Source: Octopus vulgaris (taxonomy: Eukaryota). From it: 64,000 bases of DNA. Position 1 is the stretch's first letter. Every line of letters begins with the position of its first letter. Shown here one piece after another: positions 36,697 through 40,819 of this stretch. Both the position numbers and the translations under genes were made by a program. The notes below the pieces were generated by a model, which was not told the origin of the DNA, did no database searches, and worked only from the letters and a program-made list of their open reading frames with translations. The stretch is taken from assembly GCA_951406725.2 (NCBI GenBank), contig OX597822.1, forward strand, positions 103,602,001 to 103,666,000. Reading direction: 5' to 3'.

Positions 36697-37168
36697 ATAA
36701 TTATCTATTACACCAAGTAGTCTTCGGCATGTAAAAGCCTCATTCGAGGAAAATTTAAGTAATACTAAGCAATAAAGGGTTTAGCAACGAATTGCCTTAC
36801 CACAGACCGAATTTAGAAATAGCAGTCAAAGAGTTATAGCTATTTCTTCTACTAAAAAGGGAGATCTCAGTAAAAAACACAGCAATTGGAAGGCAGACAC
36901 AAACAGGTAAGAGAGAATGAATTGACGGCAATCTATCATACAATTTTAAGTTATCTACGGACGCACGTTTCGAAATCAAGTTTTTAGGAAAGCATGAGAA
37001 TTAAATATTAAATAATTCTACGTTACCCAAACTTCTTTTCTCTTCAGCGTAGAATACTATAATCATAAGTGATTATATATTGAATTTTGAGATACTAGAA
37101 GGCACCAACTCAACTCAGTATCAGAGCGAGCTAGAATCCGCAACTAGTATCACCAAACTCAAAGTGTG
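36697..37168 (-). repeat. Inverted partial copy (472 bp) of the 596-bp unit, with a hammerhead at 36954-37053
   Basis: Reverse complement of the array unit; its left end abuts (TA)n. Confidence 0.95.
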
Positions 37169-37611
37169 GTGTCTGCCTTCCAATTGCTGTGTTTTTTACT
37201 GAGATCTCCCTTTTTAGTAGAAGAAATAGCTATAACTCTTTGACTGCTATTTCTAAATTCGGTCTGTGGTAAGGCAATTCGTTGCTAAACCCTTTATTGC
37301 TTAGTATTACTTAAATTTTCCTCGAATGAGGCTTTTACATGCCGAAGACTACTTGGTGTAATAGATAATTATTCCAAATTAATTAATTTCACCCTTCATT
37401 ATTACGGATAACCATATTTTATCTCAGTAGATGACCATAGCATCTTGTTTTGGCTACACGCGGGTGGGAAGGGGCTGGTGACACAATCCTTTCATTCACA
37501 CTTTGAGTTTGGTGATACTAGTTGCGGATTCTAGCTCGCTCTGATACTGAGTTGAGTTGGTGCCTTCTAGTATCTCAAAATTCAATATATAATCACTTAT
37601 GATTATAGTAT

Positions 37612-37711
37612 TCTACGCTGAAGAGAAAAGAAGTTTGGGTAACGTAGAATTATTTAATATTTAATTCTCATGCTTTCCTAAAAACTTGATTTCGAAACGT
37701 GCGTCCGTAGA
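37612..37711 (+). ncRNA. Type I hammerhead ribozyme, copy 1
   Basis: TCTACG CTGAAGA [GAAAAGAAGTTT..AGAATTA..TAATTCT..AAACTTGATTTC] GAAA CGTGCG TC^ CGTAGA; predicted cut after 37705. Confidence 0.9.
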
Positions 37712-38207
37712 TAACTTAAAATTGTATGATAGATTGCCGTCAATTCATTCTCTCTTACCTGTTTGTGTCTGCCTTCCAATTGCTGTGTTTTTTACTGAGA
37801 TCTCCCTTTTTAGTAGAAGAAATAGCTATAACTCTTTGACTGCTATTTCTAAATTCGGTCTGTGGTAAGGCAATTCGTTGCTAAACCCTTTATTGCTTAG
37901 TATTACTTAAATTTTCCTCGAATGAGGCTTTTACATGCCGAAGACTACTTGGTGTAATAGATAATTATTCCAAATTAATTAATTTCACCCTTCATTATTA
38001 CGGATAACCATATTTTATCTCAGTAGATGACCATAGCATCTTGTTTTGGCTACACGCGGGTGGGAAGGGGCTGGTGACACAATCCTTTCATTCACACTTT
38101 GAGTTTGGTGATACTAGTTGCGGATTCTAGCTCGCTCTGATACTGAGTTGAGTTGGTGCCTTCTAGTATCTCAAAATTCAATATATAATCACTTATGATT
38201 ATAGTAT

Positions 38208-38307
38208 TCTACGCTGAAGAGAAAAGAAGTTTGGGTAACGTAGAATTATTTAATATTTAATTCTCATGCTTTCCTAAAAACTTGATTTCGAAACGTGCGT
38301 CCGTAGA
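38208..38307 (+). ncRNA. Type I hammerhead ribozyme, copy 2
   Basis: Identical to copy 1 (+596). Confidence 0.9.
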
Positions 38308-38803
38308 TAACTTAAAATTGTATGATAGATTGCCGTCAATTCATTCTCTCTTACCTGTTTGTGTCTGCCTTCCAATTGCTGTGTTTTTTACTGAGATCTC
38401 CCTTTTTAGTAGAAGAAATAGCTATAACTCTTTGACTGCTATTTCTAAATTCGGTCTGTGGTAAGGCAATTCGTTGCTAAACCCTTTATTGCTTAGTATT
38501 ACTTAAATTTTCCTCGAATGAGGCTTTTACATGCCGAAGACTACTTGGTGTAATAGATAATTATTCCAAATTAATTAATTTCACCCTTCATTATTACGGA
38601 TAACCATATTTTATCTCAGTAGATGACCATAGCATCTTGTTTTGGCTACACGCGGGTGGGAAGGGGCTGGTGACACAATCCTTTCATTCACACTTTGAGT
38701 TTGGTGATACTAGTTGCGGATTCTAGCTCGCTCTGATACTGAGTTGAGTTGGTGCCTTCTAGTATCTCAAAATTCAATATATAATCACTTATGATTATAG
38801 TAT

Positions 38804-38903
38804 TCTACGCTGAAGAGAAAAGAAGTTTGGGTAACGTAGAATTATTTAATATTTAATTCTCATGCTTTCCTAAAAACTTGATTTCGAAACGTGCGTCCGT
38901 AGA
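38804..38903 (+). ncRNA. Type I hammerhead ribozyme, copy 3
   Basis: Identical to copy 1 (+1192). Confidence 0.9.
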
Positions 38904-39399
38904 TAACTTAAAATTGTATGATAGATTGCCGTCAATTCATTCTCTCTTACCTGTTTGTGTCTGCCTTCCAATTGCTGTGTTTTTTACTGAGATCTCCCTT
39001 TTTAGTAGAAGAAATAGCTATAACTCTTTGACTGCTATTTCTAAATTCGGTCTGTGGTAAGGCAATTCGTTGCTAAACCCTTTATTGCTTAGTATTACTT
39101 AAATTTTCCTCGAATGAGGCTTTTACATGCCGAAGACTACTTGGTGTAATTGATAATTATTCCAAATTAATTAATTTCACCCTTCATTATTACGGATAAC
39201 CATATTTTATCTCAGTAGATGACCATAGCATCTTGTTTTGGCTACACGCGGGTGGGAAGGGGCTGGTGACACAATCCTTTCATTCACACTTTGAGTTTGG
39301 TGATACTAGTTGCGGATTCTAGCTCGCTCTGATACTGAGTTGAGTTGGTGCCTTCTAGTATCTCAAAATTCAATATATAATCACTTATGATTATAGTAT

Positions 39400-39499
39400 T
39401 CTACGCTGAAGAGAAAAGAAGTTTGGGTAACGTAGAATTATTTAATATTTAATTCTCATGCTTTCCTAAAAACTTGATTTCGAAACGTGCGTCCGTAGA
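39400..39499 (+). ncRNA. Type I hammerhead ribozyme, copy 4
   Basis: Identical to copy 1 (+1788). Confidence 0.9.
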
Positions 39500-39995
39500 T
39501 AACTTAAAATTGTATGATAGATTGCCGTCAATTCATTCTCTCTTACCTGTTTGTGTCTGCCTTCCAATTGCTGTGTTTTTTACTGAGATCTCCCTTTTTA
39601 GTAGAAGAAATAGCTATAACTCTTTGACTGCTATTTCTAAATTCGGTCTGTGGTAAGGCAATTCGTTGCTAAACCCTTTATTGCTTAGTATTACTTAAAT
39701 TTTCCTCGAATGAGGCTTTTACATGCCGAAGACTACTTGGTGTAATAGATAATTATTCCAAATTAATTAATTTCACCCTTCATTATTACGGATAACCATA
39801 TTTTATCTCAGTAGATGACCATAGCATCTTGTTTTGGCTACACGCGGGTGGGAAGGGGCTGGTGACACAATCCTTTCATTCACACTTTGAGTTTGGTGAT
39901 ACTAGTTGCGGATTCTAGCTCGCTCTGATACTGAGTTGAGTTGGTGCCTTCTAGTATCTCAAAATTCAATATATAATCACTTATGATTATAGTAT

Positions 39996-40095
39996 TCTAC
40001 GCTGAAGAGAAAAGAAGTTTGGGTAACGTAGAATTATTTAATATTTAATTCTCATGCTTTCCTAAAAACTTGATTTCGAAACGTGCGTCCGTAGA
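39996..40095 (+). ncRNA. Type I hammerhead ribozyme, copy 5
   Basis: Identical to copy 1 (+2384). Confidence 0.9.
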
Positions 40096-40819
40096 TAACT
40101 TAAAATTGTATGATAGATTGCCGTCAATTCATTCTCTCTTACCTGTTTGTGTCTGCCTTCCAATTGCTGTGTTTTTTACTGAGATCTCCCTTTTTAGTAG
40201 AAGAAATAGCTATAACTCTTTGACTGCTATTTCTAAATTCGGTCTGTGGTAAGGCAATTCGTTGCTAAACCCTTTATTGCTTAGTATATATATATATATA
40301 TATATATATATATATCTGTGTGTGTGTGTGTGTGTGTGTGTGTGTGTGTGTGTGTGTGTGTATATATATATATATATATATATATATTTGTTGTACAAGA
40401 TTTTTTACGTGAAGTCGTGTGTTGAAACAGATATTGTTATATTTTGGAATGGTCATTTTGCCAGTTTAGCCAATAAAAACACACGCACTATATATTTGGT
40501 GTTATTTTGCTTCAGTGTTATTTATTTTTTACATTAATCTTAATCTTATTTCGGCAAGAGTTCTTTCGTCACACTCCTGTGACCGCATCAGTGGTCCTTT
40601 GTTTTCTTCTTTCTTATTTGTGTCTCTCCTTACTAGCCGTCAGCCATTTTGTATTTCTATTGTATGTCTTCATTTGCGCATGCATATATCTCTATGTGCG
40701 TCTATGTTCATTTAGTGTGTGTGTGTGGGGGGATGCCTGTAATATTTGTATCTTCTGTTTATATACGTTCATGTAATTTGTTTTTGTTGTTGTTGTTTTT
40801 GTTTATTCTTATTTTGTTC

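Follow-up and report, generated by a model that had tools for sequence, protein, structure and literature searches.

Organisation of the array

The window, a 64,000-nucleotide stretch of the Octopus vulgaris genome (GCA_951406725.2, contig OX597822.1, positions 103,602,001 to 103,666,000), contains a non-coding insertion whose two arms lie head to head between (TA)n runs. The direct arm comprises 5.23 units with a period of 596 bp, and the inverted arm is a 472-bp segment with 100% identity to the unit. Counting unit position 1 from 37706, the features are as follows:

36685..36699, no strand: left (TA)n target, about 3 nt of overlap with the element end (sequence, BLAST boundary)
36697..37168, minus: inverted arm, 0.79 unit; 5′ end at unit 388, 3′ end at unit 263
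36954..37053, minus: hammerhead 6 (type I, inverted arm), predicted cut between 36960 and 36959
37169..40287, plus: direct arm, 5.23 units of 596 bp; 5′ end at unit 60, 3′ end at unit 198 (site A)
37612..37711, plus: hammerhead 1 (type I), predicted cut after 37705
37812..37950, plus: most conserved structured module, unit 107-245, recurring in each unit (fold, sister-family conservation, alignment fold)
37995..38020, plus: priming zone B, unit 290-315, present in every unit and unused at this locus
38208..38307, plus: hammerhead 2 (type I), predicted cut after 38301
38804..38903, plus: hammerhead 3 (type I), predicted cut after 38897
39151, plus: lone array substitution, family-majority T, with a private A in the other five copies
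39400..39499, plus: hammerhead 4 (type I), predicted cut after 39493
39996..40095, plus: hammerhead 5 (type I), predicted cut after 40089
40275..40287, plus: priming zone A at the right end of the insertion (end mapping)
40285..40315, no strand: right (TA)n target, about 3 nt of overlap with the element end (sequence)

This anatomy agrees with the initial annotation in its count of about 5.2 near-identical direct units with one substitution, and all five cuts predicted there for the direct arm were recovered at the same positions. The lone substitution, at 39151, is the family-majority base, T being present in 68 of the 70 family loci that cover this position, while the A of the other copies is unique to the locus. 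The segment once labelled a leader is indeed inverted, but it is a second arm with its own complete hammerhead, and its 3′ end at unit 263 is an atypical AU-rich site, used by 1 of 173 family ends. The array also ends mid-unit as described; its right end is not arbitrary, however, since unit 198 is the commonest end in the family (64/173). Both flanks are (TA)n, in which the bases of a target-site duplication cannot be told apart.

The absence of a credible ORF was confirmed: among 44 frames of at least 25 aa between 36600 and 38400, the longest stop-to-stop frame spans 67 aa, and the unit contains no ORF, including the RT and GIY-YIG ORF by which an autonomous Penelope-like element (PLE) is recognised. 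The array has no LTR organisation, and its GC content is about 36% (below 50%). A recent survey (Li, Clavereau and Pollet 2026, bioRxiv 10.64898/2026.07.22.740005) uses a working definition of retrozymes as tandem repeats in which two or more consecutive units each have a full type I hammerhead, and five such units follow one another here. The 596-bp family is a further member of the known class of non-LTR retrozymes and non-autonomous PLEs.

The hammerhead ribozyme

Each unit contains the elements originally listed, namely stem I, the core, an extended stem II (a 69-nt region), GAAA, the stem III sequence ACGTGCGT and the GTC triplet. Together these supply the core CUGANGA, GAAA, NUH, three stems and open ends in stem I that distinguish a type I hammerhead. 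A relaxed type I descriptor matched 1 of 5000 dinucleotide shuffles of the unit, and compensatory changes were found among relatives, with UA replaced by CG in stem I, and AU by GC and UA by CG in stem II; for these two reasons we consider the hammerhead real by structure, and its cleavage activity is predicted. The suggested check against Rfam Hammerhead_1 did not bear this out, as no hit was reported over 9 kb, and a 161-nt stretch aligned to model positions 1-45 with 21.2 bits (E 0.0047), under the gathering score of 34 bits, stem II being treated as an insert.

Among the variants, 97% of stem cells are paired, against 25-47% when the alignment is slid; three pairs changed on both sides, a number not above shuffles (369/500) in these closely related sequences. 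Variation in the core is confined to position 7 in a 36-variant alignment that was itself chosen by the core pattern. In a sister family, stem I is mostly replaced yet fully paired. The expected palindromic stem III was also found: it is self-complementary in 17 of the 20 hammerhead classes met, with a predicted inter-copy duplex of −8.8 kcal/mol, and together with the core and stems it is retained across families down to about 70% identity. The compensatory stem changes, the pairing kept in the sister family and the palindromic stem III indicate that the ribozyme is probably under selection. A thriving sister subfamily carries the core change U4-to-C in 22 of 40 ribozyme copies (8 of 21 loci). 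Pairing of the stem I 5′ strand with a stretch of stem II was considered as a switch and rejected at a predicted probability of 0.00.

A dispersed and young family

The initial annotation proposed a search for other loci, and these are plentiful. A genome search with the unit, in which 40 of 1780 candidates were scored, gave matches of 98-100% identity on many contigs. The exact ribozyme motif occurs in 278 copies genome-wide, and 2017 matches were obtained when sister subfamilies were included; reversed-pattern controls gave 0. The family is young, and its dispersed copies indicate mobility. Flanks of 79 loci, read for element ends, are mostly (TA)n directly abutting the element.

Subfamily alleles and 19 private substitutions (15 loci) are common to all copies of a locus, often across both arms, which points to one template per insertion. 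Editing of the template from A to I was rejected as their source, the 19 changes including A>G 7 times and T>C 6 times with no strand bias. In six loci, the present one among them, private variants are confined to a subset of the copies. The 87 single-copy substitutions are private, few unit-specific variants being seen again in a second locus, and in two loci (L013 and L023) the arms share a variant solely in their 3′-most copy. Contigs of four independent runs, whose status as RNA is a guess for three, hold the tandem joint and cover all 30 bins; they give no ends, strand, level or circularity and were used neither for nor against expression.

Insertion ends and inverted arms

The proposed integration into (TA)n was borne out, with (TA)n-like DNA at 173 of 184 arm ends from 119 loci. 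The 3′ ends are concentrated in two zones, A and B, about 200 and 300 nt past the predicted cut, which account for 156 of the 173 (TA)n-abutting ends (zone B alone for 54). Together these zones make up 49 of the 596 nt of the unit and 7 of its 33 TAT/ATA words, and their predicted unpaired fraction is 0.66, against 0.38 overall. The search for further arrays with permuted ends therefore succeeded in its first part only: the arrays exist, but their 3′ ends fall at two fixed internal positions, and variation is found in the 5′ ends only. Site A lies inside the module at unit 107-245, a candidate element for RT binding and initiation; the fold of this conserved module alone was no better than shuffles (z −1.3).

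Inverted loci (n=57) pair the two zones. They comprise 41 A+B, 3 A+A, 0 B+B and 13 other combinations, so that A+B occurs in 41 of the 44 inverted loci with A/B ends only (p 7e-10). The present locus, with arm ends at unit 263 and 198, is an exception to this rule. Of 39 clean A/B loci, 10 have arms that stop within 50 nt of a shared template point, compared with a permutation mean of 3.3 (p 0.0007), and the A arm is ahead in 8 of the 10. This coupling is significant in the 15 loci picked via the 3′ motif (7/15) and not in the 24 picked via the ribozyme motif (3/24, p 0.23). The B arm reaches beyond A in 10 of the 39 loci, and arm junctions are near-palindromic in 10.

Search for a Penelope-like helper

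The PLE-type insertion suggested at the outset has its counterpart in the family's architecture, which combines fixed 3′ ends, a one-sided tail, 5′ truncation, partial tandems and an inverted 5′ copy, and which is matched by autonomous PLEs in the same genome. A 775-aa PLE family uses one end of each kind in 6 of 6 inverted copies, and the same rule holds in the 3 of 3 inverted pairs seen for a 781-aa RT plus GIY-YIG family. Three young PLE families of this genome have tails of about 30, 40 and 60 nt, against about 100 nt for the 596-bp family.

None of these three families (781-aa, 775-aa and 717-aa) has DNA similarity to the unit. When the unit was aligned locally with non-coding end sequence from the 775-aa and 781-aa PLEs, the scores were those expected by chance (51/200 and 90/200 shuffles as good), the 717-aa family gave no BLAST match, and the other GIY-YIG loci fetched lacked unit similarity in the terminal repeat or 3′ end. 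Each of these searches scored the best 150 of 6136 to 21410 candidates, and one further PLE family, the L088/L090 type, lay outside their genome-wide scope. Unit matches beside GIY-YIG genes at L095 and L114 were rejected as helper ends, being separate (TA)n insertions of sister retrozyme-like families.

Proposed mechanism of insertion

We interpret the array as a recent insertion of a hammerhead retroelement of the non-LTR retrozyme type that is non-autonomous and depends on a Penelope-like RT/GIY-YIG enzyme for copying in trans, and give this reading a probability of about 70%. Pol II read-through would yield a multimeric RNA from which paired hammerheads would excise 596-nt monomers, some of them ligated to circles. 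A PLE enzyme, probably a dimer, might bind the structured module and nick both strands of a (TA)n run. The two nicked ends could then prime on a single RNA, one at each of the sites A and B, via a few AU/TA base pairs, with the B enzyme trailing the A enzyme along the template. Joining of the two cDNA 3′ ends would give a head-to-head insert. Arms of more than one unit would be copied from a junction-containing template, and some long arrays, possibly including the present one, may have been further lengthened or homogenised as DNA.

We also speculate, well short of even odds, that the template is a circular RNA derived from the ribozyme and that a dimeric PLE enzyme primes both nicked target strands on it, one at A and one at B, with the second enzyme chasing the first and the helper recognising a conserved RNA fold, not a sequence that the two share. 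If true, the tails of PLEs, the head-to-head inversions and the tandems of retrozymes would all follow from the chasing-enzyme mechanism alone.

The template and alternative explanations

The cDNA runs past the predicted ribozyme cut in 53 of 58 passes, so the template was a circle or an uncleaved multimer, which this measure does not distinguish. A linear monomer was accordingly rejected as the main route; five 5′ ends lie within 20 nt around the cut, where a small excess is possible. For arms of more than one unit we infer a template that contains the tandem junction, circle and uncleaved multimer standing at about 55:45. The predicted circular fold of the unit is stable (−150.5 kcal/mol, z −4.3, 0 of 40 shuffles as low). 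A rod pairing unit 308-388 with 24-99 across the cut appeared in single and alignment folds, but just two of its pairs had changed on both sides, in a single sequence each; it was not counted as evidence for a circle.

A linear, uncleaved read-through template is a serious possibility, if one that we hold at less than even odds. The hammerhead would then be left over from a PLE terminal repeat, with weak or protein-gated activity, and long arrays would grow in place by unequal exchange. This fits the PAc Poseidon protein, for which hammerhead cleavage is dispensable in vitro and unprocessed RNA is the main substrate according to the available text (Frangieh et al. 2024, PMC11167929), as well as the local amplification from PLE termini favoured in the part of bioRxiv 10.64898/2026.07.22.740005 available. 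It would accommodate the U4-to-C subfamily, the L013 and L023 variants, which look as if one heterogeneous multimer had been copied, and the sister array L146, in which private variants recur with period 3 and another is present in five consecutive units and absent from the 3′ unit and the other arm. It sits poorly with the retention of core, stems and palindromic stem III in distant relatives, with the private nature of single-copy substitutions and with the small number of loci long enough to serve as linear masters. Moreover, with site A inside the module, a linear A-ended array would lose at least one unit per generation; as two same-strand ribozymes occur in just 11 of 45 loci, a circle that resets length would be favoured.

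That last argument would also serve a strict rolling circle, in which the RNA self-cleaves and circularises and the array is a single uninterrupted reverse transcript of about five turns. Such a transcript would account for the near-perfect homogeneity of the units, the private alleles common to all copies of a locus, the passes through the cut and the stable circular fold, and circles are known for coral, mussel and axolotl retrozymes in the accessible part of Cervera and de la Pena (2020, PMC7229834). We nevertheless find it rather unlikely. The period-3 pattern of L146 cannot be produced by a monomeric RNA circle, L164 has a variant with period 2, the present locus has a mixed allele, and its direct arm of 3119 nt is well beyond the typical length (59 of 62 arms are under 1.7 kb). 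The rolling-circle transcript first proposed thus stands as regards a junction-containing template, but the equation of copy number with turns of reverse transcription does not: five turns are not established, because L146 has signs of duplication at the DNA level.

Trans-copying by a Penelope-like enzyme, with two target-primed events, also has to be weighed against fold-back, in which self-priming on the first cDNA, or on an antisense transcript, gives rise to the inverted arm. This was put forward for rotifer PLEs from palindromic junctions, as described in the portion available (PMC3846280), and the near-palindromic junctions here are in keeping with it. However, 17 of the 39 loci fit neither containment rule required for fold-back on cDNA; the A cDNA could not have supplied the B tail of short inserts, L160 for example, and the A arm usually reaches further. 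We hold fold-back to be improbable, an antisense template being compatible with these data. A plain satellite or assembly artefact with a chance ribozyme look-alike is very improbable for the family, for although tandem arrays are hard to assemble and the Rfam score is low, it would have to produce hundreds of dispersed loci with stereotyped ends, compensatory changes, a 1-in-5000 descriptor match and a tandem joint recovered in four independent runs.

Comparison with known elements

In L1 twin priming, both target strands prime on one RNA, the 5′ inversion is joined by short microhomology, and the RNA is polyadenylated, each arm being copied from its own part of it, next to that of the other arm and without overlap. 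The 596-bp family shares the 5′ inversion and microhomology junction and, in our proposal, the two target strands priming on one RNA, but its arms begin at internal sites separated by about 100 nt and are copies of one and the same sequence.

As far as the retrozyme papers were available, the family resembles non-LTR retrozymes in that it forms non-coding tandems of low GC with a single type I hammerhead in each unit, is dispersed as anything from monomers to multimers, shares its genome with PLEs and has a stable predicted circular fold; its short palindromic stem III recalls the axolotl retrozymes. The unit is longer than the 170-400 nt given for metazoan monomers in PMC7229834, a difference noted initially but unexceptional within the consensus lengths of 51-972 bp in the available part of bioRxiv 10.64898/2026.07.22.740005; stem II, at about 70 nt, is extended by comparison. 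The text available from these papers does not mention a pair of fixed 3′ ends, a (TA)n target or arms lying head to head. According to the same part of the bioRxiv survey, one of nine retrozyme dimers cleaved in vitro, and in Xenopus 24 of 57 families had a match among known elements, a PLE in nearly every case; no such similarity to a PLE terminal repeat was found for the 596-bp family.

Insertions of endonuclease-bearing PLEs comprise partial tandems, an inverted 5′-truncated copy and a one-sided tail in the accessible text of PMC8557442 and PMC3846280. The present family shares the 5′ truncation, partial tandems, inverted copy at the 5′ end, tail at one end only and (TA)n preference; its tail is about 100 nt, against 30-40 nt reported, and it has no ORF. 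Its multicopy head-to-tail forms recall non-autonomous Chlamys elements such as MRC1, but those generally resemble the 3′ end of a helper and are without canonical hammerheads, whereas here there is a hammerhead and no helper was found.

The closest biochemical parallel is PAc Poseidon, whose PLE protein, a predicted dimer, nicks AT-rich DNA and extends both strands in vitro, its RT starting at two adjacent internal sites downstream of the hammerhead, in the part of Frangieh et al. available (PMC11167929). The two internal starts past the hammerhead, the AT-rich target and a tail corresponding to the stretch between the sites are common to both systems. In that text the start sites do not differ between strands and are not linked to inverted insertions, and they are AC-rich and non-homologous to the target; here each arm has its own site, and the sites are AU-rich with a few bases of (TA)n overlap.

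How PLEs form tandem and inverted insertions has been stated as an open question (PMC8557442), and the link between retrozymes and PLEs has so far consisted of co-occurrence and terminal-repeat similarity. What this family may add is evidence for twin priming in PLE insertion, in hundreds of nearly identical, short, protein-free insertions alongside three young autonomous PLE families. Its predictions are sharp: copying should start at two defined sites, with each strand using one of them, stopping points should be coupled, and the ribozyme cut should be read through. Twin priming, and the choice between circle and linear template, could be addressed in a small in vitro system made up of the 596-nt RNA, a (TA)n target and the three candidate enzymes. 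We found no report of the one-site-per-arm statistic or of the 596-bp family in the literature searched, which covered sources other than repeat libraries and two supplements. The presence of a tail at one end only is known there qualitatively.

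Anatomy and dispersal of the hammerhead repeat

The array comprises two arms, bordered at both ends by (TA)n; units are numbered from u1 = 37706, the first base past the predicted cut.

37169-40287, + strand: direct arm, period 596, 5.23 units, running from u60 to u198
36697-37168, - strand: inverted arm, 472 nt, a 100% identical inverted copy, running from u388 to u263
39151: sole mismatch among the direct units

The element is real and had been correctly spotted: this geometry confirms the initial annotation, as does the lack of a credible ORF, the longest reading frame being 67 aa. 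The supposed inverted leader is indeed inverted, and proves to be a copy of the unit with its own hammerhead, the sixth of the locus. At u254 of this locus, a private A is found in five copies and the family T in the remaining one, a mixture for which we see no explanation other than conversion, a back mutation or an error of assembly. At window positions 36247-36377, a short element between TA runs has a candidate hammerhead-like look on the minus strand; pieces resembling it were spotted by eye in loci L095, L202 and L205.

The family is young and dispersed. Across the genome (2.8 Gb, 227 contigs), the unit found 1780 candidate places, the 40 scored being 98-100% identical. Exact motifs matched 278 times for the ribozyme 3' half, 436 for the core and 2017 for u167-184, with 0 matches for reversed-motif controls. 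In sister subfamilies the period is 583-594 and identity 85-99%, and contigs of runs labelled as two other organisms covered the whole unit, with variants. The analysis covered 119 loci in two sets. The first, of 79 loci, comprised the window, 21 of 30 loci from the unit similarity search (nine were dropped as the window itself, locus repeats or gapped) and 57 from similarity and ribozyme-motif lists. The second set of 40 was drawn from 57 loci of contig C1 listed for the u167-184 motif (five were already in the first set, four very short inverted ones were skipped and eight were not taken). Two near-identical insertions with the same flank, L012 and L020, lie ~8 kb apart on contig C2, one entering an N gap, and are possibly an assembly duplication.

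A distant sister family (L170-L199; 1799 candidate places, 40 scored; a 591-nt unit in L189) has the same architecture and is 69-82% identical to the unit in the conserved module, its most conserved structured part (u107-245). The core is kept, stem I is fully paired though its sequence differs (fully covaried), and the cleavage triplet is mostly GUA.

Two start zones, one per arm

Among 184 arms of the 119 loci, 173 end in (TA)n-like DNA. These ends fall in zone A (u186-208; 102 arms), zone B (u290-315; 54) or elsewhere (17), while 5' ends are scattered. The two zones contain 7 of the 33 TAT/ATA words of the unit and are predicted to be single-stranded. Single-orientation loci (n = 62) end at A in 47 cases, B in 11 and another site in four. 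Inverted loci (n = 57) use one zone per arm: 41 are A+B, three A+A and none B+B, with another site used in 13 (array locus included), an A+B excess over independent choice of p = 7e-10 in the 44 A/B-only loci.

Of 39 clean A/B loci with two arms, 10 have arms that halt no more than 50 nt from one template point, against a permutation mean of 3.3 (p = 0.0007), and A is ahead of B in 8 of the 10; by set, the counts were 7/15 for C1 and 3/24, not significant, for ribozyme-selected loci. Neither fold-back containment rule describes 17 of the 39 clean loci. Where the arms join, their sequences overlap briefly, meet bluntly or are separated by a small insertion. Both arms probably arose by twin priming on one RNA, a process known for L1.

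Additional internal template switches or internal deletion of a unit were seen in L007, L026, L030 and L085. At window positions 771-1040, head-to-head fragments of the distant sister family, 69-73% identical to the array, have one long and one short arm, like the A/B pattern.

Autonomous Penelope-like elements share the end pattern

At least three autonomous Penelope-like element (PLE) families in the genome are young, each with intact ORFs and numerous near-identical copies. Pfam assigns RVT_1 and GIY-YIG to a 781-aa ORF, to which a 775-aa ORF is 47% identical; a 717-aa ORF was judged a PLE by eye from its GIY-YIG-like C-terminus and ends. All three have (TA)n termini, with one short end and one tailed end (tails of ~40, ~30 and ~60 nt, respectively). 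One end of each kind occurs in 6/6 inverted 775-aa copies, chosen from the list as inverted neighbours, and in the 3/3 inverted 781-aa pairs seen. Inversions, one-sided tails and a (TA)n bias have been described for PLEs (PMC8557442, PMC3846280).

This matching end pattern supports the mechanism class well and bears out the proposed (TA)n insertion by PLE-type machinery. The element works like a non-autonomous PLE; no similarity to a helper was found, the unit sharing no DNA similarity with the 781-, 775- or 717-aa families. The array is very likely (probability about 0.9) a non-autonomous, PLE-mobilised hammerhead repeat.

A 775-aa PLE copy lies at window 14940-19133 (minus strand), ~18 kb from the array and without DNA similarity to it. 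Its RT/endonuclease ORF (15658-17982) is intact and accompanied by part of an upstream ORF; its tailed end lies in (TA)n, and it also contains a hammerhead-like motif whose core reads CCGAAGA. A 5'-truncated copy of the 717-aa family (21410 candidates; 717-aa ORF in intact copies) occupies 47074-48560 and ends in (TA)n. In the 781-aa PLE (L118, L121, L125, L126, L128), a second, separate ORF of ~480 aa lies upstream and matches nothing in Pfam. The short word GC(T)ATTT(T)C does not vary within the module of the repeat (u133-145, window 37838-37850). By eye, several PLE families (L088, L090, L104, L109, L121) have a similar word 20-35 nt ahead of their short end, a likeness that could reflect a shared recognition hairpin or chance.

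Nature of the template

All copies within a locus share a subfamily haplotype, and 19 private substitutions (15 loci) run through all copies, frequently across the two arms, indicating that both arms are made from a single type of template. Either a circle or a homogeneous multimer would fit. We lean towards circular RNA, given the stable closed fold of the unit (z = -4.3) and the mere 11 of 45 loci with two same-strand ribozymes; moreover, with site A situated within the conserved module, each round of linear copying would leave arrays shorter.

The initial annotation took the array for a rolling-circle product. A circle fits the template data, but equating copy number with turns of the reverse transcriptase is opposed by variant patterns: in L146 (6.3 units) variants recur every third unit, and one is present in five consecutive units yet absent from the 3' unit and the other arm, while an L164 variant has period 2. 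A cleaved linear monomer is excluded as the main template, since 53 of 58 passes reaching u11 (C1 set plus five loci of the first set) run on through the predicted cut.

The hammerhead ribozyme

A relaxed type I descriptor matched once among 5000 shuffled units. The suggested Rfam Hammerhead_1 check gave a match, on a short stretch only and below the gathering score. In an alignment of 36 different variants found in the genome, the proposed structure pairs 97% of cells, versus 25-47% with slid partners. Three pairs are altered on both sides; as shuffles did as well in 369/500 cases and the rows are related, base-pairing conservation backs the putative structure moderately. Stem III is fully self-complementary in 17 of 20 long-stem-II classes from the fetched loci, with two outer pairs preset by the descriptor and several rows kin. 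A short palindromic stem III is described as a recognised mark of dimeric hammerheads (PMC4209133), and dimeric PLE hammerheads have been reviewed (PMC6765202).

A U4-to-C core change occurs in 22/40 ribozyme copies and 8/21 loci of a chromosome scan, and in copies of two young autonomous PLE families; such copies would count against a strict requirement for cleavage. A sister subfamily with this core has young long arrays (L133, L134, L136, L141, L146, L149, L164, L167). The host genome seems rich in long-stem-II hammerhead elements: further families with palindromic stem III lie in the flanks of L027, L051, L075, L080, L083, L091, L095, L096, L126 and L148, and head-to-head type I hammerheads with long stem II and palindromic stem III, unrelated in sequence to the array, occur at window 11664 (minus) and 11779 (plus).

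Proposed mobilization and relation to known systems

The repeat would be transcribed, its hammerheads would self-cleave as dimers and the products would be ligated; a dimeric PLE enzyme may then prime both target strands on a single RNA, after which the two cDNA ends would be joined, and some arrays may later grow as DNA. What the family adds is mechanistic and testable. Our search, which covered the published literature, found nothing specific on this repeat family or on PLE twin priming. A PLE study describes two internal start sites, extension of both strands and dispensable cleavage (PMC11167929).

Judged by its sequence, the repeat falls within the definition of a non-LTR retrozyme, a class for which circles of ~170-400 nt have been shown and PLE mobilisation has been proposed (PMC7229834). 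A recent survey links retrozymes to PLE terminal repeats, favours local amplification and gives units of 51-972 bp in 35 genomes, none of them from a mollusc (bioRxiv 10.64898/2026.07.22.740005). At 596 nt, the present unit is longer than the former circles and within the latter range.
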